DNA from: Pseudovirgaria hyperparasitica
Taxonomy: Eukaryota
Reading direction: 5' to 3' (one strand)
DNA length: 64,000 nucleotides
NCBI GenBank assembly: GCA_010093815.1
Contig: ML996565.1
Positions within the stretch are counted from its first letter, which is position 1; each line of letters starts with the position of its first letter. The notes under the pieces were generated by a model, which saw only the letters and a program-made list of their open reading frames with translations, did not search any database and was not told the origin of the DNA. Positions 1 to 28,356 of the stretch are shown in pieces. Position numbers and translations under genes: made by a program.

Positions 1-107
1 AGCATCGTAGCTGCGACAGAATGATCATCCTCTTGTCTCGATTTGTTTGCTATCATACAACGTGAAAACTGTTCCCTCAATCCTAGTTGAGCTGTCCCGA
101 GGCTTTC

Positions 108-1301: not shown

Positions 1302-3703
1302 CTGCGATGATAGCCTTCTTTGTTGCAGACTCATGTACAACTTAGCCTAGCTCGGCATCTCCCAAAGAGTACGTAGCCTCCACGCTGTGATCTGGCTGCT
1401 CCGGCATTTCGATGTTGTCTTTGGAATATAGATGAACGAGTCCATATATATTTACTACCCTTCTTGTGCAGACAGACCGTAAGTGATGTAAATACGTACT
1501 TGACCGCACATTCTACCCAGTGGTGCATTCTTTGATATGTGATCCTGTTCTGATGTAAGTAAGACAGTCAACGACCCCGCTAGCTTGGTAAGTAAGAGCG
1601 CATCAAGTAATCACTCAGGGCTAAAACTGTGGTCTTAGTAAGCGCATTGTGCAATATGCTGGATCATATGCCTTCCCAGGCGGACACGATGAGACCGTTG
1701 GTGGATCGATAGGATATATGATGTGACGCTTAGAGACTGTGCCGCTACTAAATATAGATCACTCTCATGATTTCTGTAGAGATGTGCGGTGGATCTGCAT
1801 ATACGCTAGACAAAGCGCTACCGGGTCACAGTCATCGGATCATTGTATTGATGAGATATTGACGTTGTGAGGCTTTTTCAAGCAAAGTGATGAATTGACA
1901 TGGAAAACAATATATAGATGAGGGGAAAGCTGGTCATAGTGAAACAATGTGAGTATGAACTGATAATACCCTGATTGGGTTCATAGCTTTACTGCCACTC
2001 CAGTTGTGTCTTACCGTAGACTTCGTTGTCATGTTAATAATGTTCATTGCTGAGGTCGTTTTAACGACATTTCTGCTATGATATCCACAGAATAGTTGAG
2101 TAGACTGCTAAACGGCTGCAAGGTCTTCTGGTCAGAATGGGTATGTTGACACCACCGGATCTGGATGGTTCTCCGAAGTTTGTGCATTAATCAGGTTTAC
2201 TCGAAAGAAGATTGGCGCCGGTTCTTATGACGTCTTTCTGGTGCTCAACAGCTTAGGACCTGTTTCGAAACATGATGGATTAGCTGTGCTTGTCTCCGGA
2301 TCTTATTCCGCCTTGGCTATTAGTCACATTACTACTCACATTACGAGTGCCACCCGTGACGCCTACCGACCGATGAGACGGATATCGAGTGACTTTAAAA
2401 AACACTGGACTGGTCATCAGGAGGGTGTAAGTACCTTGCTTAGCTCGAGTCATGGGTAGAGTGTGATGTGGACTGGGATTGGTAATAGAGCGTCAGGGGC
2501 TGAGGCGAGGCGGATGGATGGATGGTCTAGCGTATCGATAGCTTGCCTATCAGTGCAGGGGTGGATGGCGGTCGCGGTCGTAATTGTAAGATCGCAGACG
2601 GAATGTTGACGTGATACACTACCCTTTCTTTGGTACTACTTTGACATGGGGAATGATGTACAATGAAGTATCGACAGTCGAGCCTGCGGTATGTGTAGGA
2701 CGACATGTCTTAGACAGCGGCACTTCTGATGACGGGGCCAGAGTGATATTGCTAAATATTGACAAGGCCCCAGGAGAAGATGTCGTTTTTTGATGGTCGA
2801 TCATCGCATTCACTGACGGGAGCACGGATGTACAGGCGGGCCGCCGTCGCCAGTAATACTGGCACTGGGACCAAAACCAACACTGGCTGGCATTCACTGC
2901 TAACCGTTGCTGCTACCATGATACTCTCCACTGGCACTTGGGGGCTTGCCAGCTCATCGTGCATAAAACATTACCGCATCTGCCACCGGTACCTGAAAAT
3001 CGTCTATAAACTACTGCTGGCCCTCGCGAATGCCACCGCAGTTTGTCCTCGTACACAGCTCTTTCTCTTTCTCTCTCTCTCCTTTTCCCCCTACATCAGC
3101 AGAATGAATGGCTGGTTCGACGCGCAGGAATGATGAGATGGGGAGTCCGCATGGGCTGAGGGGTTGATGCTCCTCGTGATGAAGGCTCGCAGCCAATCAG
3201 CAGCCCGAGACTACCACCACAACAAAAGTCGCTGTACCCAACTCGGTTCGTCTGCTCGCAGCCATGAGCATTCTTCTCGCTCTCTTTCTAATTCTCTCCC
3301 TCTACATCCCCCCCCTTCTGACCCCCCTCTGACTCCCTCTGACGTTGCTCCATGCACTTCTGACTTGCTCACGCCTGTCCATCGCCGCCGCGGCAGGCTG
3401 CCCGGGAAAGCGCTAGGCCTGGAAATGGCATAGAATCGCTCGTTCCCAGGTAGGTCTCGTCTCGTAGTGGAGGGGGGAGGGGGTGCCTGACATGCGTCCT
3501 GTATGTCCGGTTTCCTCGCTGCTCTCTTGTCTGTCCAGCTCCATTCTCCATTTCCGTCTTGCTCTGGTCATAACCGTGTGTATATTCGCATCTCCAGCTT
3601 TGTCTACGCATTCATACATACATACCCCTGACCGTGCCGTGCTGCTGTATGCGCATTCCATCATAACGCGCTATTCTCTATCGGGGTTTCCATCAGACCC
3701 GCA

Positions 3704-4699
3704 ATGTGCTGGTTTCCATTATTCAAATCTTCCAAGCGCCGGAAAAAGGCTCCGAGCAAAAGAGAAAGCGTGTCTGAGAAGAGCGCATATGACGACCAAG
3801 ACGACCGTCGTCGGGGGAGGAGACAGTCGCACCAGGCGCAAAGCGCGCACTACAACACCTTTGGCGCAGCCGATCCCCTGCGCTCACATAAACCGCATTT
3901 ACGAGTCGACGTGCCGGATCGAGTGAATCGTCATGTCCGAGTCCATCTGCCGTCGTCGTCGACAGAAATGCTACTAAACCCACGGCCAGAGCGCTCGCGC
4001 CAGCACCGCCAGCGACATCACCGCTCCACCACCACTTTACGCGGACGAGGAGCGAAGCGCGATCCTCCAGTAAAGACGAAGCGCAAGCCGCCTGGCCAGA
4101 CGAAGAAAATGCCGTCCAGCAAGTCCGCGCAGAAACAGGAGTGGCAGCGTATCCCGTCTCCGTCATCGGCGTCGACCTCGACCTCGTCTCGCAAACACAG
4201 AAGACACCACACGACGACACAACCGCAACAACGACAACAACAACAGCCACAGCCGCAAGACTACACTCACTACACCCAGCCCTACTATGAAACAGCACAA
4301 TATCGCCACTACTACGACCAATACCGCCAATACTACCAGCAGCAGCAGCATTACTACACTCAATATCAGCAAACCCAGACCCCGGCATATACACGTTCAC
4401 ACTCTCGCACACGCTCCAATTCCCGCCCAAACACATCTGCCCGCCGCGCGCAGCCAACTCCCGACACGCGCTTCGCCGTGCGTGCAGCCACAAATACCGC
4501 CCTGGAGCGCATCCGCCGCGACGCATTCACGCGCTCCCCACCACAGGCGCAGCAACCCGCACTCCGGCGTACGCGGGCTACAGTTGACACTGCGCAGACG
4601 CCGTTTCATTGGGATTGTGTGGCCGACGCAAGTTCGAGTGCCAGAGCGAGTGCGAGTGTGGGTGCGTCTGGACAGCAGAGGCGGCTGCGACGACTGTGA
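3704..4699 (+). CDS. Hypothetical low-complexity protein (basic/Ser-rich with Gln/Tyr-rich segment)
   Basis: 331-aa ATG-started ORF in a GC-rich segment flanked by pyrimidine-rich leader and AT-richer trailer; no recognisable domain. Confidence 0.6.
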   Translation: MCWFPLFKSSKRRKKAPSKRESVSEKSAYDDQDDRRRGRRQSHQAQSAHYNTFGAADPLRSHKPHLRVDVPDRVNRHVRVHLPSSSTEMLLNPRPERSRQHRQRHHRSTTTLRGRGAKRDPPVKTKRKPPGQTKKMPSSKSAQKQEWQRIPSPSSASTSTSSRKHRRHHTTTQPQQRQQQQPQPQDYTHYTQPYYETAQYRHYYDQYRQYYQQQQHYYTQYQQTQTPAYTRSHSRTRSNSRPNTSARRAQPTPDTRFAVRAATNTALERIRRDAFTRSPPQAQQPALRRTRATVDTAQTPFHWDCVADASSSARASASVGASGQQRRLRRL

Positions 4700-12330: not shown

Positions 12331-12830
12331 TTGGTTGTCAAAATCACGCATAAGTACTCACCCGGTAATTCTTATTGGTAGGTGAATCTCAAAACCGAAG
12401 CTAATAGATTTTATTAGCGCGGGCCGATTGCAAAGTTGCGGCTATATGTCTAATATCACTATTTATGGACTAGACGGAGCAGGTAGGACAGGGATCACTT
12501 GGAACACTACCCAGGCTCTACTATGGCCTATAAGTAAGGATTGATAGAAAGGCTCAGAGGTCCCTATAGCCAGTATCATTCCTACATATTCATACTTGAC
12601 GTTCTCAGGAATAATTCGAGTTACCTCCTATCTACGCTCTTATCCACTCCTGGCTGGTTATAATATGGTTTCTCTCACGCTCTCCGTCGTCCTAATCTCT
12701 ACGTTCTTTCTACCATGCATGCCTTACCCAAGATGAACCTCCTCGTCAGCCTCTTCCTAAGTACTATCACCTACATCATTCATGTACCGAAGATCGCCTG
12801 TTAGCAGAGTCTATTGCAGAATCTTTTCAT

Positions 12831-13583
12831 ATGGCATTCCGGGGTGCCAAACGTCTAACTGAGATGGAAAAATTTTATTCGATTGGGCTAGATTTAAATA
12901 TACATGAACTGGTGGGGGGCACATGGAAAGAATGGCGCGAAGTTCAACATCTCCAGGGATCAGCTCAAGTTACGCTAAGGAACATTTTCTATACACTTGG
13001 TATCAAATACGACCCTAAATATCCCGAGTCTGAAAAGTATGCACGGGAAGCGTGGCTTATTATGCAATCAATCGGGGGGCTGGTCCGGTCTCCGGATCTA
13101 GAAGCTAGTAAGGTGCGCATCTATTGCGATGATGATGCTCGCTGGATAAAACCGGCTCCCGCCGAAGTGTCTGGAAGGAGGGACAAAAATGGTCTACTCC
13201 CGAAGAACGCTCTCTTTAGCAAGGCTCTGGGAGATCGAGTTCAAACAGATCACCATCTTTATTTCGACATCGAGCAAAACCTAGATGGTAGTCAGCCGTG
13301 GCGCTCCGTTAGGGGTACGCCGCCCTGTCGTCAAGGGCGATTCAGTGTTGAAAAAGAGCTTGGGTATCTCAGGCTCATTCGGGAGACCTCTGGTGATAAA
13401 TATGAGGTAGTATTATGCAGGTATTTGTTCACCACGACCGGAGCTAGCTCATTCAAGAGACTGAGACACCAGTGGGGCTTGGGCGCGCCTTTGAGTCTTG
13501 CTAGGAACGAGGTTCTCTCTCTATCGTTTATGACTAGTCTATTCCTCCTAAGGATCCTAGTAGAAGGACAGCGTGAGTTTTAG
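12831..13583 (+). CDS. Hypothetical protein or gene relic
   Basis: 250-aa ATG ORF embedded in a TAG/CTA-rich degenerate zone; no confident domain. Confidence 0.35.
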   Translation: MAFRGAKRLTEMEKFYSIGLDLNIHELVGGTWKEWREVQHLQGSAQVTLRNIFYTLGIKYDPKYPESEKYAREAWLIMQSIGGLVRSPDLEASKVRIYCDDDARWIKPAPAEVSGRRDKNGLLPKNALFSKALGDRVQTDHHLYFDIEQNLDGSQPWRSVRGTPPCRQGRFSVEKELGYLRLIRETSGDKYEVVLCRYLFTTTGASSFKRLRHQWGLGAPLSLARNEVLSLSFMTSLFLLRILVEGQREF

Positions 13584-14192
13584 TTTCTATTGAAAAAAGT
13601 CTACTAATGAATAGGTATAGTAACACGTAGGCGTCCTAACGTACCAAACGAAGATGGGAAGACATGGCAAGATATAATATTACGGCCTCAAGAAACGAGC
13701 GCAAACTCTCCACTAAGCTACGGTAAGTTCAAATACCTGATTGTATTTACCCACTAATAAAAATTTAGCATACTTCGGCTTGCTTTCTTACCTAGCAGAC
13801 TTCGGAGTGGAGCTAAGTGAGGATGATAACCAGGCTAGAGCCGGTACATTAGTCGATGTGAATAATCGCTAGAAAGGCTCATGAGGATTATGGCCCGTTA
13901 TTAGTAAACTGGGAACTCTCGTGTAAATATTACGGTCGCTAGACCTTAGTCTGGTGGTGATATCGAGGATTACAATGATGGCACATAGATACTCCCATCT
14001 CAGACTACTAGCCGCAAGGGCTGTTCTATAGTCATCATAGGAGGAGGCATTTCGATTATCTGCCTTGTCTCCATAATACGAACAGACGCTTTTCACATCA
14101 GCCTTGGATAGTTTCGCGTTCTGTTTGCCTATTGCTATCTAAGTCGATTGATTCTTGTTCATGGACCGCGCTAGCTATTTCTTTCAATGCAT

Positions 14193-15171
14193 CTAAGGAA
14201 ACTTATAGCCACAACCCACATTGTACAACGAGCTTGCAAGGAGCAGATTGCTGTACTGGATATGGGCGCCGTTGATCGGGTTGTCGCCAAAGTCTTGTGC
14301 TTGACTGCATCCCTGTCGATAATCTCAGTTACCCATATAGAAGTCATTCGAGGGGGGAGGGAAACTCACAGTCGGCTCCTGACCTGAACAGATGTATGTA
14401 TTTGACTGCGATACCTGACCGTTCGCTGCACTCTCCCAGTACTCAGTGCCATGGTGCTGAAAGCCAAGCAATTGAGGAGGAATCTGAGGCACGCCATCGT
14501 TCTGATGTGTGACGCGGAAGTACCGAGAAGTGGGAATGAGGCGCTGGATGTATGTGGAAAATGCTGGATTGCCATTACGGGGCTCGCCAAACGTGTAGAC
14601 GCTCAACTGCTTGCCTTGAGCTGCGAGTGATGTTGAAGCAAGAGATGCAAGGCCTCCGCCTAGAGAGTGACCGGTCACGGTAAGTTTGTATCCAGAATTG
14701 CTTGACAGGGCGCTGGTGACGGTGTTTGACACATCGTTGGCAATGGATGCGTAGGCGTCTTGGAAGCCTTGATGGACTTGGCATCCTGAGCACGATGTTC
14801 CTGGTAGGGTGAGTTGCGTGAGGGTGAACAGAAAATCGGTATCCAAGTCCAGAGGAGTAGATGTACCGCGGAAGGCGAGAACCAACTCTTTTGCTGCTGT
14901 GTCGCGGAAAAGGTAGGCCTGAGTGTTAGTTGCCGTCCCGTTGAAGAACTTTAAGATCGTAGAGCCTGATGGAGGTTTTGGGCAGTTATTGGCGTATGCA
15001 GCGGCCGCAAAGTTGCTGTATCGGACAATGTTGTTGTATACATCTCCGGAAACTGTAGATCTGGTCAATGACGGTTAGAGTACCGATGCTGAGAAGACGA
15101 CGTTTACCTGCTGTTTGTGCGTTCACAGCAGCCGCTGTGAGGGCAGTCAATGCTAGAGAGTAGAACTGCAT
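14193..15171 (-). CDS. Secreted class-3 lipase / feruloyl esterase A (FaeA)-like alpha/beta hydrolase
   Basis: Signal peptide MQFYSLALTALTAAAVNA; introns 15053-15107 and 14313-14369; LAFRGT, VHQGF, nucleophile GHSLGG, YTFGEPRNGN, RVTHQNDGVPQIPP, catalytic His in PINGAHIQY in last exon. Confidence 0.9.
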
Positions 15172-15624
15172 TATGTTTATGACCTCTATTCAGTATGATC
15201 CAGTATCAGGTCAGATTGGCAAACACGGTGGCAGATGGGTTGTGGCCGATATCAGTCCTGCTCAAGCAGCACTCCACTGCAGCTCACATGGAAGCACATA
15301 TTTCACATGTTGTCACATCGGCATATGTATCCGAACGTGAATGCACGTTGATGCCCCGGAAAGCTCATGGCGCAGTCTAGCGACAAGTTAGCCATCAGAC
15401 GGTTGCATTTTAAAGATGGTTAGCTTTGTGTTGTATGGAACGCTAGCTAAAAGTCGTTGTAACTCTATTTCGCCAACGACAAGGAGTATGCGTTCAACAC
15501 AGAACGGTCTCACATGCTTGAACAGGAGATGTTTACTTGTTCCCAGCTTACCATCGTGTATCTTCGACATGCTAATCATCGCTCTTCCCATCCTTCTTCA
15601 ACTCGTGTCGACCTTGCGAACACC

Positions 15625-16202
15625 ATGTTATTCACCCAGCTCATTGTCACGCTTTGCGTTGGCATCGCTTTCGCTGCCGACGCGAACAGCGTAGTTGCCA
15701 TTATCAAGAATGTCCAAATCAACACAAATCAACTGAACCTCGACGTCCAGAGATACAATGGTGGAGTTGCAGGCCTCCCCTACGCGCTCCAGGTCCAGCA
15801 AGACGCAGTGCTCACCCACGAGCAGATCGTCCTTGGAATCACAGAGGCCAACAATTCTGCGCCATTCGGAGAGCCAGGCAGCTTCAACGTTGCCGGTGCA
15901 TTCCTCGACCTGTCGAATACCGTCACACAGACCCTGCGGAACGTGTCCAGCAAGCAAGCCGCATTCAAAGATCTCAGGCCTATCGTGCTTGCCAGTCTAT
16001 ATCAACTCCAGCAAGATACAAGGGACTTCGGGGCTGCGTCAATTGCCAAGCTTGCTGCTCTTGAGGCCGCAGCAGCACCATTGGTTGTGCAGAATCTGGT
16101 CAACGAGTTCAATAATGCTATCATGGCATATGGAGGAAAGGGTAAGTCTCTTCTTCATTGCGGGATTAACTCAGTCACTGACTAAGATATGCAGCAACAT
16201 GA
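15625..16202 (+). CDS. HsbA / cell-wall mannoprotein Mp1p family secreted protein (copy 1)
   Basis: Signal peptide MLFTQLIVTLCVGIAFA; amphipathic helical pattern, LNLDVQRYNGG, SAPF, K.AAF, V..SL..L...T..FG, F..AI.AY; probable intron 16142-16194 with 8-nt last exon. Confidence 0.8.
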
Positions 16203-16689
16203 AGGTAGTGATGATTGATGAGGTGTCTTAAATCGACTCATTTCTACAAGATAGCGTGGGCATAAGACACAAGACTTTTGAACTCTGTGCCAATACTTCA
16301 AAACAGTGCTCGTGATGTTCTGCCGTGATTGTACGTATAAGGCTACTGATAACCACTCCTTCTTCTCAGATGTATTGTTGTTCAAGTGATCCATGCAACG
16401 GAGCGTGCTGAAAACAACACATCAAACTCACATGTCTCCGTGATCGACCTCGGGGTCCCGCAGCGGGCCTGTCGATCTCTATTATAATGCTTCCTAGGCC
16501 TCTGATAGCGGGACCCTATCTGCAGCTAAGTATCAAAGGGGCAAGCCTTTGAGTGTTAGCGGGATATATCTAGACCCATAACAGTATAGAATCTGGGGTA
16601 AATCTGGGGTATCACAAGCCAAATGATATTGATTCCTTGATCGTGCATCGCACACTGCGTGTAGTTCATCACATTGCAGGACGTTACAG

Positions 16690-16695
16690 CCGAGG
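16690..16695. promoter_or_regulatory. Putative FarA/CTF1 site CCGAGG upstream of HsbA copy 2 (second site CCTCGG at 16448-16453)
   Basis: Exact match to the FarA consensus ~166 bp upstream of the ATG; a 6-mer, so chance occurrence is possible. Confidence 0.45.
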
Positions 16696-16855
16696 CAGAG
16701 CCATCAATCAGAAGCCACAACATCGACGAGTGGGGATTGATGGAGAATCAATCAACCAAGACGATCAAAAGATCCCTTGATTACCTCCATTCAGAACAGT
16801 ACAGTACCTAACTCCACAAACTGACCGAGTAACGACAACATCACCACCGACTACC

Positions 16856-17410
16856 ATGAAGCTTCACACGTCCATCCTGCTTCTAGCCGCGAGCACGCTC
16901 AGCACCGCCCTCGCAATCGAGGCACGCGCAGCCCAAGATGTGCTGAACGACATCTCGCAGATCAAGACGCAAACCGCGACCGTCCAGCGCGACATTGACG
17001 CATTCCAAGGCGGGCCCGCGAGCGCCGTGCAGGCCCTCCAAATCAAGACTGACTCCGACACCCTCCAGAAGACGATCCAAAAGGGCTCGACAGACGCACG
17101 CAACTCTGCCTCCTTCACCGACAACGAATCTGCCGCGATTGCCAATGCCGTGACGGGACTCCAGACGAGTATCTTCAAGGTCTTGAACTCTCTAGTTGCG
17201 AAGAAGGCAGGGTTCGAGACAGCGATCTTTGGATCCAGCGCGGTGCCGATTGTGCATGATACGCTCGTGGGCTTGAGGGCTGATACGGGGTATTTTGGGG
17301 GCAACGTGACTCAGAAGCTGACTCCGCAGATTGCGAAGTTGAGCCCCTTGATCGTGTCGAACATCGATTTTCACTTTGTGAGGGCTGTAGATGCGTTTTC
17401 TTCGGGTTAG
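16856..17410 (+). CDS. HsbA / Mp1p family secreted protein (copy 2)
   Basis: Intronless 184 aa; signal peptide; DVLNDI..I......DIDAFQGG, SASFTDNES..I, LNSLVAKKAGF, IDFHF.RAVDAFS typical of HsbA. Confidence 0.9.
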   Translation: MKLHTSILLLAASTLSTALAIEARAAQDVLNDISQIKTQTATVQRDIDAFQGGPASAVQALQIKTDSDTLQKTIQKGSTDARNSASFTDNESAAIANAVTGLQTSIFKVLNSLVAKKAGFETAIFGSSAVPIVHDTLVGLRADTGYFGGNVTQKLTPQIAKLSPLIVSNIDFHFVRAVDAFSSG

Positions 17411-18563
17411 GGCGGGAGAACATCTGAATGAGACAGAAGTAAAATACGAAGATGTTACGAGGTCTGACTGCTTTTTTCACGATGGATGATGAGATAGTAA
17501 TCATAACGTGTTCGAGCAAACTCGTGTTGGCCAATACTTTGCCATCTGCTACTATAAATGTGTTCATACTGTTGGAATTGGCAATGTGAACAGTCACACC
17601 TGCTACTTACAGGAACGCCTATATAAACTGGCGACTCAACAACTCTTTCTAATGCATCCTTCCATACCACTACATCACATTCACACCGAATGCTGGTTCT
17701 TTTTAAATACAGTTCATAGGGATATCGACAATTACGTGAATCAATTTACATCGTCAGAATACATGATATCAGCCATGCACTCTGTGTACAGCCAAGGAGA
17801 CCGACTACAAGGTCCCTCGGAGAAAGGTCGCACACATGCTCGTAGTCCGCAGCGATCCTTTCGCGAGAATGACAGTACGACTCACTGCGCAAATTATTAC
17901 GAAAAAGGATCTACATCGGGCAGTCCCCAGTCCGAAGCAACTATACTGTGCCTAACCAGCAGCAGTATCACGAGCACGCTTGAAGCCCCCCCCAATCAAC
18001 GTCTTTCTTGCCAAGTCAGATCAAGTCTGGCACAGCGGAGCGTTCACACTCGGCTCAGGCTCTCGAGGCGCTAACGTGGAACTTAAAATGCAACGTTGTC
18101 AAGAGACACTTTTGTTATGGCCAATGGGACTGGACTTGAAAGGCTCCGGTGCAGTGCGGTCCTGGCTAGATAGCAGTAAGCTTATTTTAGCGTTACCCCA
18201 GACTTTCTTGCTACTACGGATCGTCAGCGTGTGGGGAAGTTTGGGGGATATTGGGGGGCATTCTTGATTTCCCTGTGGATGTTGCTTGTAAGTGCGACGC
18301 CTTAAATCTCAACAGATGCTGGCGTGGGTTGTTATGTCTGTATGCCCAAGGCCAGCATTCGAGAATGACGATGTTCGGATATCGAGACGAGCAAGAACTG
18401 CTTCTGCCAAATGATGATTACGGTCATTTAGCTCTGTCCTCTTTCAGAATGCCGATCTCAAGGCTGCGGTGCAGTAGCACGTCGATCACTGTCACCATCC
18501 CTGCTGAATCGCCGCAGATCTTCGCTGAATAGGAGTGCCCCAAGTGCCGTCTTCAGTACAACA

Positions 18564-18569
18564 CCGAGG
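18564..18569. promoter_or_regulatory. Putative FarA/CTF1 site CCGAGG upstream of HsbA copy 3, with TATAAA at ~18633
   Basis: Exact consensus ~190 bp upstream of the ATG, upstream of a TATA-like box. Confidence 0.45.
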
Positions 18570-18754
18570 CGATCAAAGTCGCAATTGAGTCTCCACGATC
18601 AGACCAAAGCATGTGGAGCCAAACTGACAGGATATAAAACGGGTCTGACAACCGCATCCAACTCGAATCTTCCCCAGCAAGCACAACGAGAACATCCCCA
18701 CCCCAAAAGCACAGACATATCTCATCTCTCTCTCAAGAAAGACAGAAAAAAAAA

Positions 18755-19285
18755 ATGCAATTTTCCTCGCTCTTCACCGTCTTCCTCGCCGGCGTCGCCC
18801 TCGCGGCCCCGGCCTCGACCACAGCAAACAAGAAGCGCGACCTCGCCACCATCACCGCCGCCTTCACCGACATCCAGAACAAAGTCGGCTCGCTCGACAC
18901 CGCCGTCAAGGCCTACCAAGCCGACCTCACAGACGTGTACAACGCGTCCCAGGACGTCCTCGCCTCCGTCGACAGCGGCAACACCAAGGTAGCCGCCACC
19001 TCGCCCGTCACGCTGTCCGAGGCGCTCAAGGTCGCCAACCAGGCCGACGCGCTGACAAAGGTCATCAACACGGCCGTCGACGACGCGCTGGCCAAGAAAT
19101 CCGCGTTTGACGCGTCCGATGCCTCCTCTACCGTCGCCGAGGTCTTGAATGACTTCAAGGCTTCCGCTACCAAGTTTGGCGCCACGGTCAAGTCCAAGGT
19201 GCCTGCTAATGCGCAGTCTATTGCCCAGGGCAAGATCGATAACATCATCAAGGCTATTCAGCGGGGTATTGATGGCTTTGCTTAG
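18755..19285 (+). CDS. HsbA / Mp1p family secreted protein (copy 3)
   Basis: Signal peptide, Kex2-type KKRD, LDTAVKAY, LSEAL, L.AKKSAF, KSKVP, IQRGIDGFA; very strong C/G third-position bias. Confidence 0.92.
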   Translation: MQFSSLFTVFLAGVALAAPASTTANKKRDLATITAAFTDIQNKVGSLDTAVKAYQADLTDVYNASQDVLASVDSGNTKVAATSPVTLSEALKVANQADALTKVINTAVDDALAKKSAFDASDASSTVAEVLNDFKASATKFGATVKSKVPANAQSIAQGKIDNIIKAIQRGIDGFA

Positions 19286-19345
19286 AGTGCTTGAGGCCGT
19301 GTGGGGAAGCTTGAAGTGCGCCGGTTGCGCTTGCCCCTTGCCCTT

Positions 19346-19346
<1 letters not shown>

Positions 19347-19380
<34 letters not shown>
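19347..19380. repeat. (TG)n microsatellite in 3' region of HsbA copy 3
   Basis: Perfect GT dinucleotide run read directly. Confidence 0.95.
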
Positions 19381-19381
<1 letters not shown>

Positions 19382-19984
19382 GGGGGTGGGTAGCAATTCT
19401 TGTATATAGCGCAAAGTAATGTTGGTAGTAACGTCAAACAAAGAAGTAAAACTTGAAAATCCATCACGTGTCTTGTGTGTCTTTGTCATTTATCATCCCT
19501 TGCTCGTGACTTGGCTGTCTCGTTTACCAAGACGTCAATGATAGGCCAAGTAGGCCCCCTAGATATCCTTCATCAAGCTAAATTCTAAGGCAACGTACCC
19601 CTTTAAAAGACGCACGAACACAAAGTTGAGATAGGCTCGAGGGGCATGCATCCATCCGGATATCCGGATTAGAAGGATATCCATGCCGAGTCCGTGCCGA
19701 GAGTAATTAACAAAAACAAAGAGTGCTTCCCTCCCTCCGTCCATCCATCCATCAATCCCTCCTCGCTTGCTGTAATATATGACCTCCCCCTCTCTCTGCC
19801 TCTCCCACAGTCACTTGCAACACCATAGAAAAAAGTCTTTGCACGGAAAATGATATTCGTATACAACAAGCAAGCCACACTACAAGCCTTTCATATGCCT
19901 GCCGTAGCAGGTCACCGTCCACCCAGTATTTACACCCGAACCAAGCTCACAACATGCACTGTATACAGGCTCTGCCCCAATTTC

Positions 19985-22900
19985 TTATCCCCTCCTCACA
20001 CTCCCAAACCCCCTCTTCAGCATCTCCTGCACCTCCTCATGCCGTCTCGGCCTCACACCCTCGGCCTGCTGGGTGCTCGGCTGTATCTGCGCCTCGTCCG
20101 CGGTCCTCGTCCTCAGCAGCTCCTGCATCTCGCGCTCCTGCTCCTCCATGGCCTTCTGCTCTTCTTCGATCTTCCGGGCACGCTTCACAGCCTCGCCGTC
20201 CTGGCCCTCCAGGGCGTAGCCCCAGCTTGCTTGCAGTATGTTCGCGCTCGCTTCCTCGAGGCGGCGCTTGATGGCGGGATTCTGTTCGAGGGCCTGGAAG
20301 GTGTCGACGTCGTCGGGGAAGTAGGCTTTCCGTGCGGCGCTCACGGCGATCTCGAAGAGCGTGCAGGCCGCGATGATGAGTAGGAGGATTGTCCACCATA
20401 GCAAGCTGCGGCCGAAGCGATCGAAGAAGGCGCCTTTGACCTTGTATATGATGTTGTTGTGGTAAGTGCCAGCCAGAATGATGTTCCAGAGGAACCAACC
20501 GCCGACACTACAGAATGCACTGATAGCTGGCATGTACGTCTTGTGATGCGTCTCGAGCAGTTGGAGTTTTATCGTGATCAAGATTACGACAGACGAAAAC
20601 GTTAGTTGGCCCATGGCGAAAAGCGTGCTGTCGCGACTGAAATCAACTTCGCCGTAGAGACCCCACATTGTCCACCAAACGACCATGGCTTCGGCCACAC
20701 CCATGAACATCCAGCCGAGGTAAAGCTTGAAATTGAAGCCACCGTTGCGTTGGCCCTTCGTGTACAGCTCAGGAACAGCAAGAAGGGTTGACGCGGCGAG
20801 ATCTTTCTCGAATATGCCGATAAAGATGACAGGGAGAGAGGTGAAGAGGGTGTTGAACATGGAAAGCGACCACGATTCGTAGAGGGAGGTGCCAGTGTAG
20901 CCGGCATAACGTTGGTAGAGGGCTTGAGTCATGTAGAACAGCTTTGTCATGTTAGCCGTTGTATATAAGCAGGAAGGAGAAGGAAGGGAGACAGTGCATA
21001 CCATTTCTTTCCAGAACGTCGCGACCGTGTACTTGCAAGTGCGGATGTAGTTCCACCGGCCGTGACACAGTAGAAGCTTTACAAGAAAGCGAAACTGTCC
21101 GATGCTGTAGTCGCTGACTCGAGCTGCTTGGAGACCTTCCTTGCCAGCAATGCCAATGCCGACATGTGCTTCTTGAATCATGGCAATATCATTCGCTCCA
21201 TCTCCAATGGCCAGTGTGATACTCTTCTTTACCCGTTTTCGAATAGCTTTGACCAAAAGGGCCTTCTGAGACGGTGACGCACGACAACAAATTACGCTAT
21301 CAACAAGGATAGCCAAATCGAAGAACAGCGCTGAGAGTGGCGGAGAAGTAAGAATGTATGACAAGGTCTGGCCATCCACGACGACCACCGAGTGGGCAAC
21401 ATGTCCACTATTGATATCGACTATGCCAGCCGCGATGTTTTGTTCAACCTCTCCAGCCTCATTGTCCAGAACTGTGACTGTTGAGTAGTCTTTGATCAGT
21501 CGGCAAGAGTGTCCGATATTGATCGCGGTCTCTCGCTTGTCGCCCGTGAGCATCCACATCTTGATGTTGGCTCTCCGAAGTTTATCGATTGCTTCTGGAA
21601 CCCCCTTTTGTAGTTTGTCTTCAATAGCGGTCGCACCTGTAAGCTCTAGGTTCTGCTCAATCAGATCACCGGCCTTCTCAATCAATTCTGTTCGATCCAC
21701 AAGACTAGTTGTGGCATCGAGATATATTTTCTTCCAGCCTTGATAGTCTTGCTCGTTAAGAAAGCGATGCCCATACAGCAAGGTCCGAAGACCTTCTGTT
21801 GCAAAGTCGTTGATATGTTGGAAAGTGCGTTCGAGAACAGCAGGCTCGTCAGCTACCAACGACTCCTCGACCATCTCGTCGAGATCGTCGAGTATCATGG
21901 AGCTTCGAGCGTCCGACATGGCCAGAGATTGCCTCTGAAGCTGCGTGGATGGCCGGGGCGTGTAGAATGCCTCGTCCTCGACGACATCCATATCTACATC
22001 TCTTTCTCTCTGACTCAACCAGGAATCGAGCTCGTCTCTGGGAGACTGCATTCCAATCCCGTTACCAACCGAAGACTGACGAGCGCCAGACATGCTGAAA
22101 CTGGACCTGCCCATGCTGCCCATGCTCTTTCGCCCAAAAGTCCCACTGAGACGTCCAATGCTACTCTTACGATCAAACTGTTCGCTTCGTCTGGCTATGG
22201 CATGCTGTGCCTCCAGACTTTTGCGCTTCGAAGCTCTGCGTTCGACTTCTCCGACCTTTTGGTTGGCCAGACTTGATAGCCGCAGCCGTTGCATGACGAA
22301 ACTGTCGGCGCCCTTGCAGAACATACAAAGACGCTGGTCAGGGAAACGCACAATAATTGACATGCGTTTGCGCTTGCTCGTAAATTCAATCACATCCAGA
22401 ACCTCGTATATCTCGGTAATCTCTTCTCCACCTGGTGTTATGGGTACAATCTTTAATGTGATCGTGCCGACATCTCTGTTAATAACCATGAAACCCAGTT
22501 CCTGCGCTGCTCGCACCAAAGCAAGCTCGTCTGGCGAAGAGGCTTGAAAGTCAATCTCCCCATTGTCCTTCTTCTCAGGGAGACATGTGTGGCATAGCGC
22601 TATTGACAGCAGGAACAGTCTGGCTTTCTTCGCGAACTTGGTGTGCGGCTTGCGCTGAATGTACCGAATCAAGTCGGTGGATAACATCTCTGTTTGATGC
22701 CGTGCTGGTCTCGCGGTTGAGCGCCAGGTGACGGATCGCTGAGTCTCGTTGACGCCTTCGCGCTCTGGAGACTCGCGCTCCGGCGATTCACCTTCAAGAC
22801 CATGTCGGATCATTTGACTCGACTTCCGACGCAGAGAATGAAGGCTTTTCCGAGGCTTTTCTACTTTCTCCTTCCCTTTGACGCGTTTCTTCTTCATACG

Positions 22901-25156
22901 CGGCCCGGCATTACCTGTATCGACTATGTCTAGGTTATGCAACCAAGCTGTCCCGGCGACACTTATCTTGCGAAATTTCATCATGTTGTCTGTGAGTGTA
23001 CCTGTCTTGTCCGAGAATACATAGCTAGGTATGGATTAGTGCCTGGTGCGCTAGAAGCTTGGAGCTATGGGAACATACCTGACTTGGCCGAGCTCTTCGT
23101 TGATCGTAGATGTCCTGGCCTCACATGGTGTATCGCTTACGGGATCGTACATATCGATATCGTTGAAAAAGTACATTTGAGCAACTTTGACAATCTCCAA
23201 ACTCACGTACAAGCTCAAGGGAATGAGCGTGTTGAACATGATAATGAAGCTTGCCAAGATTGGAAAAAAGGCCACGCCAGCGTTGGTCAGATACCAGGAT
23301 TTGTCTTCTAGGCTGTCCCAGATTTGATACGCGACGGTATTGAAGATGGCAAGGGCAACGACGAATATGACAACCAAGAGGACAATCTTGTTGACAATTG
23401 ATTGTAGTGCCGGTGCTTTGATTCGTGGGTTCTTATTGGCATTCATCCGAATTCTGCATTCTTCGCCAGTATAGATGACCATTCCGACCGCGTCTGGCGT
23501 GTTTCGCAGCACACTACCCCGATATATCACCTCGGCGCTTGTAAGTGGTGAGGTTTTCCCATTGACAGTCACCCTCCCCTCAAAGTTGTAGAGGTCAAGG
23601 TTTGGATCCTCCACGACAAATTTTGCCTGACAGTTGACGATATCGTGCGATGACTTGCAGATCTCCTGTATTGAGGCTGTAGCTTGCTTGCTTTTCAGGT
23701 TCGTCTCGCCATCCAGAGCCATGGTTTCCACATACGCGATTCCGTTTGGCCCACTTGACTGCAGAACGACCAGATCCGCCGGGGCGGCATCGTCTCGATT
23801 CAGTTTGACCACATCGCCAACCCTAATATCCTGCCACTTGGTAGATGCCCAGTGTATTGGGCCAACGTTCGGGGTCCCACTGATTTCTTCGTCAGTCGAC
23901 AATCTCGTGGCCGTAGGCTGGTAGGCATGCAGGATCTTGGCATCTCGTTTGTTCTCAGCCTTGTCCAATCTATACCGACGCAGGTCATCATAGCCCTCCT
24001 TTGCAATGGACAAACTGACGAAGAACATGAGCGGTACGATAGTGGTAAAAGTCCCCGTGGTACTGAGACCGGGTATCAACTGCAAAATACTAATACAAAG
24101 AAAGTAGAAGTTGGCAAGCTTCGAGAATTGCGCGAAGAGTTGACGCGGCACAAAATTCCACGCGTTGTAACGGGTCGATCGGATATTGTTTGCGATGAAG
24201 TTCTTGTTCGTCCTTTCATCAACCAGGTTCGTTTTTCGGAATGGATCCAAGTCGATATGTCTACCGTCTTTGCTGGGTGGGATGTCGTGTATTCGGAGGA
24301 CAAACTTCCTCGCGCGAGTATACACGCGCTTGAATTGTTTGTATGCGGTATTGTGGCGCGCTTTGTCCGCTATCCAAGACTCATAGTTGGGCAGTGCTGC
24401 GAGACCCAGCGTAGTCTTCTTGTCCTTCGGCTGTTCCACTTGCGGCTCGATGAAGTCGAAATCGTCTGGAGCAACGGTAGATATCGTCGTCGTAACAGAC
24501 TTTTTACTTGCTCTCGAGTCCTGCCGTAAGGGTACATTTTGCGATGACTGTGAACCTGCACCTTCCTGCAATTCGATTACGGAACCATGATCCGGACTAT
24601 TTATCGAGCCCTCCACATTTCTATGAAACAGGGTTCTCCGCAAGGAATAGCCACGATTGCGCGTCGCAGGCGAAACAGGAGAACGTGGCGATGGTGAACT
24701 AGACGGCGAGCGTGCGCTGAGAGTAAACGGTGACTGAACTGCTGCTTGTCCACGTACAGGGACACTGCCAATCGACGCAGCTCGCGTATTGATCGAAAGG
24801 TCTGGTGTACCTGGTCGCAGCTTTGTCGATGCAGGGTTCCTTGACATTACTTCTTGTATGGATGCGCCCCGAGGGTTGGGCGGTATGGGCTGTTCACTAC
24901 GTTCGACATCGGCAGAAAAACGGACACGGTGTCCTGCCTCTGCCAGCGAGGGTCTTCGACCGTTGTCGACAGCGGTCGAGTGTGTCTCATTCCGACTCCC
25001 ATCATCTGCATTACTCCGCGACACGACCGAGTGTAGTCCATCTCTCAAATCACCGTCCAAGTCTACATCGTCTCTTTCAGGCTGGGCAAAAGACCTACGC
25101 CGCAGACCATCCGAGGAACCGCCGCGGCCGCCGCCTGGAGAAGTTGGCGCAGACAT
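19985..25156 (-). CDS. DNF3: P4-type ATPase phospholipid flippase, Dnf3-like
   Basis: LDGETNLK, IPLSLYVSLE, EELGQV|SYVFSDKTGTLT across intron 23025-23078, SSPDE, EFTSKRKRMS, LTGDKRETA, GDGAND; second intron 20942-21001. Confidence 0.93.
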
Positions 25157-26169
25157 TGTTGCTCTTCATTGGCCATGCGAGACATGGGAAACTTGAGTGT
25201 TGGGCTTTAAAAAGTGGAGGAGCGAGCGAGCGAGCGATCTGGTATGTGTGGTGTGCGAAGAAGACTGAGCGTAGAGAGAGAGAATGAGGTAATAGGTGGT
25301 GGAGAAGGCTGAGGCTAGTAAGTAGTACGTAGGACAGATCTCACGAGTATGTGCGCAAGCCTCATAACATCATTCTATACTTATTAGTGGTCCGGCGGCA
25401 GCGGCCCCACGACCATATCACACTCTCTGAGACTGAGGGCAATTCTGCCGACTGCGCGGCAAAATCTCTACAGACGCGAGAAAAAACTTCGGATTGATTA
25501 TTGTACGCATGCAAGAATCTTTATCTGCTATGCATGCAGTGCAGTCCAAGTCTAGCAATTCACGCTCCAAGGGTCCCTTCCCCTCCCGCCCTCCGATTAT
25601 GGCCGCGCCCGCAGCCTCCTCCATGTGCGGGTGCTGGGTTGCAGGTGGGGCGGCATCTGATACTGCGCCACACCTATTTTTAGCGTGCGTGCGTTCGTCC
25701 ATTGGAATATGTCTGCAACCTGCCCAATTCACGTCTCGCTTTCACTTCTGACCCTTAAAAGTTCGACACCTGGAAAGAAAGCCGGTCAGTCTATTACTTT
25801 TATCTAGAAAAAAAAGTGCAATGGCTCGTGGCCTAGACTTGAGCTACGCACGACTAGAGTCTGCTTCCTCAACCCGCAAACGCTGTCATGGACAATATGG
25901 AGCGGGTAATTACTTAGCCAGGTTGTTGAGAATCCGCTTCCAAAGACGGGGGAATTGACAGGCTTTGGGCGTTAGTGGATGTTCTACTGGGAGGGCCCTT
26001 AGAATACATGCAGGAGCTATGTGTAGGCGCAGGAGCAAAATGTGGAGAGAGATGGGTTAGGTTAAAGAAGAGAAGGTTTTTTTTTTCTGTAAATGGCTAT
26101 CATGAGGCTCGTGGATATTAAAATGACACGCTATGTATTTCGAACTATGAAGGGTGCGGACTACCAGGG

Positions 26170-27693
26170 TTACACCCGGTCGTTATGACTGACCAGACTG
26201 GCCTCATCGTCAGTCTTGATCTCAAATGCATGTTCCACTCTGATCACTCCAGCTTCCATAGATCTCCCCCGACCTAGATCGACAGGACTGTCCGGAGCGG
26301 CCGTAGTCCGCACTCCCGTCTCCCGGACCCGGACGCCGCCTTTGTGAAGAGATTCGAGTTTGTTGTCATTGCCGTACTTGAGGTAGTGACGGGAGCGATT
26401 GCTGGAACCGCCGAGGCCGGGAAATATCCTGACCAAGACCATGCGAACAGTTGGCAGGCAGGCGCAGATGATGCCAAAGGCAACTTCGATGATGGTCCAC
26501 TTGATGACGTCGTAGTAATGCCACGTGACATTGAAGGAGGAAGCAAAGTGAAGGAGAGTTTTGAAACGAACGATGGACACGATGGTGACGCTGTAGGTTT
26601 GTGTGGGTCAGTATCTTGTCTGGTGGCACGCTCAGGAGTAAGAAAGGGGAGGAGAGACGTACAAACTTCCCACGCAAAACATGATACCAACGCCGATCTT
26701 CTTCTTCCAGTTGATATTGAGGGTGCGTAGTTGCCACAGTGGGATGCCCAGAATCCACAAGTCGAGCGCGATGCTCATGACGCCATGTGAGGTGGCGAGA
26801 GGAGTCGTGTTGATGCACTTGCCCTTATGCAAGCCATCCCAACCGTCCCAGAAGTGGCTGATGGGCTGACACTGGAATATGGCGGTCAGGAAGTAGGCGA
26901 GACCCCAAACTGTGCAGAACATGATGGAAGTCCAGAGTAGTCGTTGGACGCCCTGACTAGGAAATATGCGTAGGTAGAAGAAGATCAGGGAGAGCTTCTG
27001 CATCGCAATTTGGACGAAGTAGAGCCAGGTAAGGTGGTAGGAGAACTTGATGGACTTTGTGATCTGCTCTGGCTCTAGAGTCCATATATCCTTACCCATG
27101 CCATGGGCAGATGTGCCGTAGACAAGGATGACTGCGGTTGGAATAACGCTGAGGGCACCGACAATCACAGTCCAGTCATCCCATCCGAGAGGTATGCGTG
27201 CGACGAAGACTTTGAAGAAGATCCGTACGACGACGAAGACAGCAAGAAGGACTATGTGTATGTTGGTGATGACAACCAACTCCGGTGCTCTGTTGCGGAT
27301 AGGGGCGCCGCATAGAGTGGCGCTTACATTCTGCGCGACTGTGCTATCCTGTCAGTGTTTGGACTCGATGACACAAAAGAGAATTTAGAGGGTGAACCCA
27401 ACGGGATAGGCATACCGAGAGATTCAGGGATAGTGCACGATTGCATCACACAGGTAGACACATTCGCGTTGAATGCAGCATTTGAGCAAACACATGATAG
27501 GTCTGTCAAAGAGGGACATGTCTCGGGAGACAGGGCAGCAGCGGTACATTTCAGCTGGCAAGGAGAATTAGCCAGGGACAGACGAAGCAAGTGAAAAGAC
27601 AAGGTGGTACTTACGGCACATTCAGGCGGGGTTTGCTGTGCAATGACGAGAGCAGACCACAGTGAGCATAGCAACAAGAAGAAGCGAAGACAT
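26170..27693 (-). CDS. CFEM-domain PTH11-like integral membrane receptor (ATG out of frame with exon 1)
   Basis: Signal peptide, CFEM cysteines (PPECA|LKC..C..DLSCVC..CVMQSC..LCG), GWDDW, GMGKDIW, YLRIFP, FQCQPI, IEVAFGIICACLP; introns 27555-27614, ~27342-27415 and ~26593-26662. Confidence 0.85.
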
Positions 27694-28356
27694 TCTTGGA
27701 AAGTGGAGGTTAGATGTGCCAGGGAGGATTGCAGGGGAACCCCGGGACGGTCACAGGTCGTAGACAGGGAACCGCAGTTTGCTGAAGAGAACGGATAGTA
27801 GACAGGAAGCCGGGGGAGGGCGAGAAGATATGGATGATGGATGATATAGCAGGATCCATGGCGTTGTCATGCCGGCACTTAAGAACAAAGTGCGATCTAG
27901 AAGTTGATAGGGGGATTGTGTAGCAAGTAGCCAAGTCGGTCGCGGGTCGCAAGTAGCGGCAGGCCAGAGCGTGGGAATTAGGTTTAGTACAAAGGGACGG
28001 GTTGTGGCGAGGAAAGGCCAGGATCACCGTTGAACGCCGATGGTTACTCAGCTAGGTAAAGTGAACGAGGACGGAGAAATAGGAAGAGGATTTCGCTAAA
28101 GGCAAAAAGGCAGAGAGGATGAAGGGAGAATGGATGACGGATATTGGGGGAGAAGGGAAAAGTGGAGAAGATGGGGAGTTGAGAGGTTGAGCCAGTGTTT
28201 AGCCGCAGCAGAGGAGAGCACGCTGTCTGTGACTTTGTGTTGCAGATACCTGGTGGTGGCTCGTGCGCCTTTGCCAAGAACAGTTCGTCCACAACGATGG
28301 GCTCCGGGGAATCTCTCACAGGTACAGTAGAATGGAATGGGATAGACGCCACACAA

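Follow-up and report, generated by a model that had tools for sequence, protein, structure and literature searches.

Does the secreted lipase gene that lies beside three HsbA genes in Pseudovirgaria hyperparasitica belong to a linked enzyme-recruiter system, and if so, which of the HsbA proteins is its partner? Since 2006, HsbA has been invoked to account for how hydrolases, cutinases among them, are recruited to hydrophobic solids such as biodegradable plastics and the cuticles of plants and insects; our search of the literature on HsbA found no binding partner, interface, or genetic coupling. An earlier note on this DNA had proposed a linked cluster of the lipase with all three HsbA genes and knew of no description of such a cluster; our literature search likewise found no linked or cognate lipase-HsbA pair. 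The window analyzed here is the whole 64,000-nucleotide stretch of contig ML996565.1 (assembly GCA_010093815.1) in which the locus lies; at the protein level it is 99-100% identical to P. hyperparasitica.

The lipase (start codon at 15171, minus strand) and HsbA1 (start codon at 15625, plus strand) are arranged head-to-head with 453 bp between start codons (Table 1), matching the secreted GHSLGG lipase and ~450-bp divergent promoter of the earlier note. Its family assignments also held in Pfam scans, where every match exceeded the curated cut-off: Lipase_3 (PF01764; cut-off 22) in the main lipase exon ORF (14328-15074, minus strand; 126.2 bits, E 1.1e-36), and HsbA (PF12296; cut-off 33.5) in the ORFs of HsbA1 (15625-16182; 74.3 bits, E 1.5e-20), HsbA2 (16856-17407; 87.5 bits, E 1.3e-24), and HsbA3 (18755-19282; 83.3 bits, E 2.5e-23). 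Database proteins P0001 (288 aa; 99% identical) and P0121 (174 aa) agree with the lipase and HsbA1 models, and the N-termini of both proteins appear hydrophobic and signal-peptide-like. All four genes lie under spliced transcript contigs from two runs of one sample; these contigs extend to 15418 on the lipase side and 15507 on the HsbA1 side, positions that are contig ends and not mapped transcript starts. Because the contigs reveal a 53-nt 3' intron in HsbA1 (16142-16194), the protein ends in ...AYGGKAT at 174 aa and not where the longer ORF ends.

Table 1. Features of the lipase-HsbA locus, in window coordinates.
Feature	Position	Strand	Basis or remark
Lipase/esterase gene, class 3, secreted, 288 aa	14193..15171	-	Pfam and transcript contigs; = P0001
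Lipase exons	15108-15171, 14370-15052, 14193-14312	-	Transcript contigs read against sequence
Lipase introns (n=2)	14313-14369 and 15053-15107	-	Transcript contigs
Divergent intergenic region, 453 bp, common to lipase and HsbA1	15172..15624	.	
HsbA1, 174 aa, = P0121	15625..16202	+	Exons 15625-16141 and 16195-16202
HsbA2, 184 aa, diverged tandem paralogue	16856..17410	+	Intronless; transcript contig 16715-17532
HsbA3, 176 aa, most diverged tandem paralogue	18755..19285	+	Intronless; transcript contig 18421-19320

The closest solved relative of the lipase is Aspergillus niger FaeA (structures 1uwc, 1usw, and 2bjh; for 1uwc, E 1.3e-50 over residues 21-272). The nucleophile Ser151 sits within GHSLGG (P0001 residues 149-154), and the triad Ser151/Asp207/His266, invariant across 20 clade members, aligns in 1uwc with the Ser of GHSLG, the Asp of NDG, and the His of AH. 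Elsewhere the two enzymes part: in the alignment with 1uwc the lipase has Phe where FaeA has Tyr80 and Tyr100, and Pro/Asp/Phe in place of the polar flap residues Asp71/Gln75/Thr78. The motif VHGGY of canonical FaeA is VHxGF in the lipase clade (here VHQGF), and the tail after the catalytic His is 22 residues long in the clade versus 13 in canonical FaeA. This clade of 55 rows is separate from FaeA (SH-aLRT 100), and many of the lipase orthologues carry the annotation 'ferulic acid esterase A faeA'. According to the accessible text of PMC1660568, Tyr100, which replaces a lipase Phe, and the flap residue Tyr80 are sites of functional shift in FaeA. Since the lipase lacks these residues, feruloyl esters are unlikely targets, and with lipase-state residues at the shift sites the enzyme can probably not be counted among genuine feruloyl esterases. 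The FaeA likeness seen earlier stands as to nearest relative, whereas feruloyl esters become an improbable substrate; cuticle, wax, or polyester may be the substrate.

HsbA1 as modeled is a five-helix bundle of the Mp1p/AFMP4P type: its AF2 model (pLDDT 86.5) was matched by Foldseek to 5j5l (TM 0.82/0.94, rmsd 1.0), and a profile match to Mp1p/AFMP4P structures (5csd, 5fb7, 5ecf, 3l1n, 5j5k/5j5l) had an E of 5.6e-17. Mp1p-type wall mannoproteins bear a C-terminal Ser/Thr-rich region and an anchor signal. Neither was found in HsbA1, HsbA2, or HsbA3, which end 4 to 15 residues past helix 5. In source databases such proteins go by the name 'antigenic cell wall galactomannoprotein'. Pairwise identity is 30-31% between HsbA1 and HsbA2 and 21-22% between HsbA3 and the other two, and we found no DNA-level repeat joining the three genes; together, these low identities and the absence of a repeat fit old duplications. 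GC content across the region is ~0.50, and there is therefore no sign of RIP, so the earlier picture of three co-oriented, highly diverged, and undamaged old duplicates is upheld. P0136, an HsbA2 orthologue with 67% identity, and P0122, an HsbA1 orthologue, are both encoded on one contig of 2544 bp. HsbA2 and HsbA3, as old tandem paralogues, probably work unattached, binding surfaces or lipids.

Linkage of the lipase to HsbA1 recurs in other fungi, which argues that the association of enzyme and HsbA exceeds chance. We counted as linked any HsbA1-subfamily member and clade lipase with consecutive identifiers or on contigs of exactly equal size. By this measure at least 11 of the 28 HsbA1-subfamily clusters examined were linked to a clade lipase, among 120 lipases listed of 750 matches. 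In Zasmidium cellare ATCC 36951 the lipase KAF2165861 adjoins the HsbA gene KAF2165862, and in a second Z. cellare strain the lipase PRZ48_014817 and HsbA PRZ48_014816 are neighbors. Further pairs share contigs of 3849, 3856, 6330, 8610, 23057, 32418, and 118967 bp, and in A. lucknowensis (388062 bp) and Neofusicoccum parvum (559853 bp) a lipase and an HsbA1-subfamily gene lie on one contig; for the three large contigs (119-560 kb), co-location does not imply adjacency. Among the matches listed, all 12 linked lipases fall inside the 55-row clade, scattered over its branches in the tree, whereas the other 47 rows include no linked lipase. Orientation was read at two loci, that of P. hyperparasitica and a metagenome locus (L039) in which HsbA genes lie 1 kb from a clade lipase, on its 3' side; linkage can thus persist where no promoter is shared. 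The synteny expected by the earlier note was recovered only in part, however: for 10 of the 28 clusters, all on contigs of at least 15 kb, no equal-sized contig appeared among the 120 lipases listed of 750 matches, so lipase-HsbA1 linkage may not be universal. Clusters with no match include a second HsbA1-subfamily paralogue of P. hyperparasitica itself (P0127). What these counts point to as the conserved unit is the lipase together with HsbA1.

Structure prediction supports direct binding between the lipase and HsbA1. The pair scored 0.85, 0.86, and 0.85 versus 0.00 for the best of three controls, where the score is the model's own confidence, computed from single sequences; in calibration, 51 of 78 solved complexes attained the mark, as did 2 of 108 mismatched pairs. 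At least 95% of contacts were common to the runs, with partner pLDDT of at least 92. On the lipase side the predicted interface consists of the clade-specific C-terminal tail and the active-site rim; on the HsbA1 side, helices 2 and 4 and the C-terminus surround that tail. Contacts are also predicted at Thr85 (which we take to be the position of the AnFaeA oxyanion Thr68), at the flap start (85-91), and at the loop carrying the catalytic His266 (259-268), while Ser151 and the remainder of the flap are absent from the confident contacts. The flap and tail are the lowest-confidence parts of the lipase monomer model. A hydrophobic tail placed against an amphipathic bundle could in itself yield an artefactual complex score.

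Conservation within the HsbA1 subfamily is concentrated at the predicted interface (mean 0.78 versus 0.61 for the rest, p 0.001), where 11 of 26 positions are invariant compared with 19 of 131 elsewhere (p 0.002). HsbA1 orthologues are 62-88% identical at these positions and 36-59% identical elsewhere. Lipase interface residues, by comparison, show no extra conservation (0.68 versus 0.68 for the rest). Because HsbA2 and HsbA3 keep only 6 (23%) and 2 (8%) of the 26 interface residues, a module with three recruiters is unsupported; what survives of the proposed enzyme-plus-recruiter cluster is the lipase and HsbA1, for which both the recurrent linkage and the complex score speak.

Taken as a single explanation, the one toward which we lean on balance is a lipase from a sister clade to the type-A feruloyl esterases that has gained a hydrophobic 22-residue C-terminal tail and that forms, with a cognate HsbA1, the conserved core of the locus, most likely as a 1:1 extracellular complex; HsbA2 and HsbA3 would stand apart. 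The two genes would be transcribed divergently from one 453-bp region and their products would meet outside the cell, where HsbA1 helices 2 and 4 and the C-terminus would clasp the lipase tail and touch the flap start and catalytic-His loop. By analogy with A. oryzae HsbA, HsbA1 may tether the lipase to the surface of a hydrophobic substrate and influence how readily the active site is reached; by analogy with Mp1p/AFMP4P, it may take up the released acyl chain. It may have one or both roles. In pancreatic lipase, a small non-catalytic protein, colipase, binds beside the lid and anchors the enzyme at the lipid interface; its fold and lineage are unrelated, and the parallel is one of analogy only. 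Tentatively, HsbA1-subfamily proteins might even serve a widespread ascomycete clade of class-3 lipases as colipase-like small subunits that the enzymes cannot do without. The bundle would clasp the C-terminal tail and flap, dock the complex on waxy or polyester surfaces, and hand acyl chains from its cavity to the active site or back; the clade would take in Dothideomycetes and Aspergillus and, possibly, Hypocreales that infect insects.

Alternatively, the two genes may be co-regulated neighbors whose products form no physical complex, held together by a shared bidirectional promoter, with HsbA1 a general secreted surface or lipid binder that prepares hydrophobic substrates for attack by many enzymes, a role resembling that proposed for HsbA with cutinases. 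Co-regulation without linkage of HsbA and lipolytic genes is described in A. oryzae and A. nidulans (accessible text of PMC4117967), in A. niger (accessible text of PMC3415456), and in Venturia inaequalis (PMC9632046), and in A. oryzae hsbA and lipolytic genes, the class-3 lipase mdlB among them, are under the common control of FarA (accessible parts of PMC9394342, PMC3415456, and PMC4117967). The lack of extra conservation on the lipase side would also suit neighbors of this kind. We nevertheless regard this as rather unlikely, given the complex score against controls, the subfamily-specific HsbA1 motifs that fall on the predicted interface, the clade-specific lipase tail, and the linkage at L039, where no promoter is shared.

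Physical contact could also mean that the dedicated task of HsbA1 is to inhibit the lipase, keep it latent, or help it fold, covering the active-site rim until the substrate is reached or guarding the producer's membranes; bacterial lipase foldases and lipase-immunity pairs offer analogues. The predicted contacts at Thr85, the flap start, and the His266 loop would fit such a role, as would the low confidence of flap and tail in the lipase monomer model, and the elements contacted are said to confine the FaeA active site (accessible text of PMC1660568). Ser151 and most of the flap lie outside the confident contacts, however, and proteins of the HsbA family, known to adsorb to surfaces, recruit enzymes, and bind fatty acids, are not known to inhibit or fold an enzyme; we consider this explanation improbable. 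Least probable in our judgment is an ordinary cluster of secreted-protein genes, in which a genuine feruloyl esterase of type A, with plant cell walls as its target, happens to adjoin unrelated HsbA cell-wall antigens. The frequent 'faeA' annotation of orthologues, A. niger FaeA as best solved relative, and the galactomannoprotein label of the HsbA proteins all point that way, but the Phe residues at the Tyr80 and Tyr100 positions, the differences from FaeA at flap positions 71 and 78, the ending of all three HsbA proteins just past the helical domain, and the recurrence of the linkage argue against it.

Several characterized systems resemble parts of this proposal. In A. oryzae, HsbA attaches to PBSA by adsorption and recruits CutL1 (Ohtaki 2006, as cited in accessible parts of PMC9394342, PMC3415456, and PMC4117967); there too a small secreted member of PF12296 works alongside a secreted ester hydrolase on solid hydrophobic material. 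That enzyme is a cutinase, and those parts describe no linkage, specific interface, or cognate subfamily, whereas the two P. hyperparasitica genes are neighbors, their pairing is conserved, and a defined heterodimer of their products is predicted. The ligand-binding domains of Talaromyces marneffei Mp1p and A. fumigatus AFMP4P, which share the family and fold of HsbA1, enclose palmitic or arachidonic acid. Their structures are titled as domains of larger proteins (6j6f holds two in one 313-residue chain), unlike the three single-domain HsbA proteins here (174-184 aa, no C-terminal extension), one of which is predicted to bind an enzyme. Yarrowia lipolytica UP1-4 are secreted Mp1p-like helical barrels that trap fatty acids freed by extracellular lipases and carry a conserved surface patch, for which the authors suggest an unidentified partner; the accessible text reports ~10% identity to Mp1p and no enzyme partner or gene linkage (PMC9526294). 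The nearest functioning parallel to the proposed complex, also a secreted fungal enzyme with a small helix-bundle partner, is the Pleurotus eryngii 'novel laccase' PeNL (8paq). Its ~17-kDa helix-bundle small subunit pairs with it 1:1 as a heterodimer, touches the loops that bind substrate, and makes the enzyme more stable and more active (accessible text of PMC10443355). PeNL is, however, a multicopper oxidase, and the fold likeness of its subunit to HsbA1 is weak (TM 0.53, rmsd 6.0) and is known as likeness, not homology.

The conserved pair and its predicted interface offer a concrete system of two small secreted proteins with a deletable tail and with HsbA2 and HsbA3 as controls, and the pairing may help explain how HsbA-type proteins bring enzymes to waxy surfaces. 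If the pairing is true, part of HsbA paralogue diversity would reflect cognate partners for particular enzymes, the 'ferulic acid esterase A' annotation widespread in the lipase clade would be corrected, and enzyme-plus-anchor pairs would become available for polyester or wax degradation. Were the colipase-like version to hold, it would provide the first defined enzyme-binding mode of any HsbA/Mp1p protein and the first fungal lipase-cofactor pair.

The motif CCTCGG, the FarA/CTF1 site, was not found in the lipase-HsbA1 intergenic region (15172-15624), which counts against the favored explanation. Two copies, at 16448 and 16690, precede HsbA2, and two more, at 17815 and 18564, lie ahead of the HsbA3 coding sequence. 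Across the window it was observed 37 times versus 28 expected, a count reached by 6 of 100 shuffles.

The best-supported unit in this region is a proposed cognate secreted pair: the lipase and its divergent neighbour HsbA1. The gene content described in the earlier note was borne out: a lipase with GHSLGG in its 288-aa protein, a start codon set back to back with that of HsbA1 across 453 bp (the divergent promoter had been put at ~450 bp), and three genes matching Pfam HsbA (see table). The copies were also rightly called highly diverged, with protein pairs at 30–31%, 21% and 22% identity; a repeat search of the region found no DNA repeat joining the three HsbA genes, only short matches, and GC is ~0.50 across the whole four-gene region. 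The best database matches to the lipase and HsbA1 are proteins of Pseudovirgaria hyperparasitica (99–100% identity), a species in the dothideomycete order Acrospermales.

Features of the lipase–HsbA region and other genes in the window
Feature	Position	Strand	Introns	Transcript contig	Pfam match
Class-I methyltransferase-domain gene	87-1298	+
Expressed gene	12696-14087	+	13573-13620; about 13722-13767	ends 14087	none
Lipase	14193-15171	-	14313-14369; 15053-15107	14103 to 15418	Lipase_3 (main exon), E 1.1e-36
HsbA1	15625-16202	+	16142-16194	from 15507	HsbA PF12296, E 1.5e-20
Tandem 11-nt unit (x2)	16590-16611
HsbA2	16856-17410	+	none	16715-17532	HsbA PF12296, E 1.3e-24
Inverted near-copy of 11-nt unit	18194-18205
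HsbA3	18755-19285	+	none	18421-19320	HsbA PF12296, E 2.5e-23
GT/CA microsatellite	19321-19393
Phospholipid-translocating P-type ATPase (flippase)	19985-25165	-			PhoLip_ATPase_N, PhoLip_ATPase_C, E1-E2_ATPase, Cation_ATPase
Pth11-like gene	26635-27866	-			CFEM, fungal rhodopsin-type 7TM
WD40-repeat gene	30953-33222	-

Transcript evidence comes from two coded runs of a single sample, whose contigs skip GT..AG introns and are therefore read as transcript assemblies; run depths were not used to rank genes, and uncovered parts were left uninterpreted. Such contigs cover the lipase and all three HsbA genes, so all four are expressed in that sample, from which co-regulation does not follow. Splicing of the HsbA1 intron gives a protein of 174 aa with the C-terminus AYGGKAT. 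Between the lipase and HsbA1 contigs at most 88 bp lacks cover, contig ends being distinct from mapped transcript ends. Beyond the lipase lies an expressed gene with two small introns; its transcript contig and that of the lipase, on the opposite strand, end 16 bp apart.

Structure prediction supports binding between the lipase and HsbA1, short of demonstrating it. With mature lipase (19–288) and HsbA1 (18–174) supplied as single sequences without alignments, three runs gave complex scores of 0.85, 0.86 and 0.85, versus 0.00 for the best of three controls; in calibration, 51 of 78 solved complexes attain the mark for this score, against 2 of 108 mismatched pairs, and among eukaryotes the figures are 39 of 65 for solved pairs without a like older complex and 2 of 126 for unrelated pairs. 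Agreement between the runs is at least 95% of contacts, with partner pLDDT of at least 92. Confident HsbA1 contacts fall in 47–66 (helix 2), 116–130 (helix 4) and 171–174; those of the lipase are 43, 85–91 (a Thr and the flap start), 259–268 (the catalytic-His loop) and 273–288, a clade-specific tail. We take the Thr to occupy the position of the AnFaeA oxyanion Thr68. In the lipase monomer model, flap and tail have the lowest confidence (block pLDDT 58–77), a comparison with the complex that is just suggestive since the monomer came from a different predictor.

The HsbA1 subfamily is more conserved at the predicted interface (mean 0.78 versus 0.61 for the rest, p 0.001), with 11 of 26 contact positions invariant versus 19 of 131 others (p 0.002), and orthologues are 62–88% identical at contacts and 36–59% outside them. 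Lipase-side contacts are not enriched in conservation (0.68 versus 0.68 for the rest). The earlier note had cast all three HsbA proteins as recruiters or lipid carriers linked to the enzyme: HsbA1 stands as the predicted partner, but HsbA2 and HsbA3 keep just 6 and 2 of the 26 contact residues, each below its overall identity. A rival explanation is that the lipase and HsbA1 are co-regulated without binding, which their back-to-back starts would suit; the complex score counts against it.

Known activities of the HsbA family suggest two roles for HsbA1 in the proposed pair. HsbA adsorbs to polyester and recruits CutL1 (passages in PMC9394342), and HsbA1 may similarly modulate the lid region of the lipase as well as tether the enzyme to a hydrophobic substrate. 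HsbA1 may also take up the acyl chain released by the lipase: family structures hold a fatty acid inside the helix bundle (AFMP4P with arachidonic or palmitic acid). A profile of the HsbA sequences matches, with E-values as low as 5.6e-17, A. fumigatus AFMP4P and the ligand-binding domains of Mp1p, and the AlphaFold2 model of HsbA1 (five helices, pLDDT 86.5) fits arachidonic- or palmitic-acid-bound AFMP4P with TM 0.82/0.94. Alternatively, HsbA1 could be an inhibitor or folding helper of the lipase; contacts at the catalytic-His loop would be compatible with this, whereas the family activities point to tethering and acyl uptake. A working precedent for the pair is the small subunit of the Pleurotus 'novel laccases', a helix bundle that forms a 1:1 heterodimer, contacts substrate loops, and stabilises and activates its enzyme (passages in PMC10443355), although its fold likeness to HsbA1 is weak.

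All three HsbA proteins end directly past helix 5, which makes them short proteins of a single domain. The subfamily of HsbA1 is small and separate, with the invariant motifs LQVQ.DAV, L.P.VL..LY.L and YGG: a search of 1.84 billion representatives returned 23 proteins at E 1e-30 or better, with HsbA2 at 9.7e-22, and a profile from a mixed HsbA alignment added only the HsbA2 orthologue P0136 among the matches listed (8000 candidates). The ESM Atlas matches held HsbA clusters only and no fused lipase–HsbA form. A second P. hyperparasitica paralogue of this subfamily (P0127, on a 395646-bp contig) is 47% identical to HsbA1 overall and has the same residue at 21 of the 26 interface positions.

A further rival is that the lipase is an ordinary FaeA and the HsbA genes are unrelated neighbours. 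The closest solved structure is indeed A. niger feruloyl esterase A (1uwc, E 1.3e-50), ahead of fungal lipases at ~1e-35, and alignment with it shows the triad positions conserved (Ser151, Asp207, His266). The lipase-to-FaeA functional shift has been tied to flap Tyr80 and Asp71, and to Tyr100 in place of a lipase-conserved Phe (passages in PMC1660568); at these positions the lipase has Phe, Pro and Phe, and thus, as judged from the alignment, is without the residues of the shift. Among 120 matches listed of 750, relatives of the lipase have VHxGF and a 22-residue tail past the catalytic His, versus VHGGY and 13 residues in canonical FaeA, and P0001 (the lipase itself) is the sole P. hyperparasitica protein. 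A quick maximum-likelihood tree built on 102 rows places these relatives in a single clade (55 rows, SH-aLRT 100) apart from canonical FaeA. 'FaeA-like' therefore describes the nearest solved relative but not the shift residues or the clade, and the database name 'ferulic acid esterase A', borne by many clade members, is doubtful given Phe/Pro/Phe.

As to unrelated neighbours, linkage recurs in part, read elsewhere from consecutive identifiers or contigs of exactly equal size. Orthologues of both genes have consecutive accessions in Zasmidium cellare ATCC 36951 (Mycosphaerellales) and consecutive locus tags in a second strain (PRZ48_014817, PRZ48_014816). Among 28 HsbA1-subfamily clusters compared with lipases (9 from the first homologue search, 19 from later ones), 11 are linked to a listed lipase by one sign or the other; the equal-size contigs are of 3849, 3856, 6330, 8610, 23057, 32418 and 118967 bp, and of 388062 bp in A. 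lucknowensis and 559853 bp in Neofusicoccum parvum. Ten others lie on contigs of at least 15 kb but have no partner among the lipases listed (120 of 750), so linkage may not hold throughout the subfamily; the remaining 7 are on contigs below 10 kb, too short for a verdict. All 12 linked lipases, including that of the window, fall inside the 55-row clade, scattered over its branches. Adjacency is proven only for the window, Z. cellare (by numbering) and the metagenome contig L039; other cases are same-contig.

L039 was the one locus of 80 metagenome loci with HsbA ORFs, which lie ~1 kb past the 3' end of a lipase belonging to the 55-row clade; its positions 1–4136 form an inverted duplication (lipase 3' end, HsbA, then mirrored HsbA and lipase 3' end), either a real palindrome or an assembly artefact. 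L004, L006 and L010 have no HsbA within their flanks, and their lipases (48–49% identical) are of the VHGGY type with matches ending ahead of the tail; they were assigned to a different subclade and not counted against the linkage. L001–L003, in the lipase clade, span 1.0–1.3 kb without flanks. One 2544-bp contig carries orthologues of both HsbA1 (62% identity) and HsbA2 (67%). Published work reports HsbA as co-expressed with cutinases, lipases or faeA (passages in PMC4117967, PMC3415456, PMC5602860, PMC9632046, PMC13562122, PMC4859500). In agreement with the earlier note, we found no description of a linked lipase–HsbA pair, nor of a defined HsbA–enzyme interface, in the accessible portions of full-text literature outside subscription journals and supplements.

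A motif scan found no copy of CCTCGG, which we take to be the FarA-type site, in the 453 bp common to the lipase and HsbA1; two copies precede the HsbA2 coding sequence and two that of HsbA3, and the whole window has 37 versus 28 expected, a count reached by 6 of 100 shuffles. This site is tied to FarA control of cutL1, mdlB, tglA and hsbA in A. oryzae (passages in PMC4117967); FarA control through the lipase/HsbA1 promoter is unsupported by the scan. The repeat search also located the unit AATCTGGGGTA in tandem before HsbA2, with an inverted near-copy before HsbA3. CTGGGG matches the CreA consensus, a fit that could be chance.

Immediately 3' of HsbA3 is a dinucleotide microsatellite, read as THTHTH/VCVCVC in ORF translations, and the large flippase gene lies directly downstream. 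The Pth11-like gene is ~7 kb from HsbA3, a proximity that may be chance given how many receptors of this type these fungi have. In A. niger, straw induces hsbA, faeA and several lipases along with a pth11 homologue (passages in PMC3415456). The methyltransferase-domain and WD40-repeat genes are unrelated to the lipase/HsbA finding.
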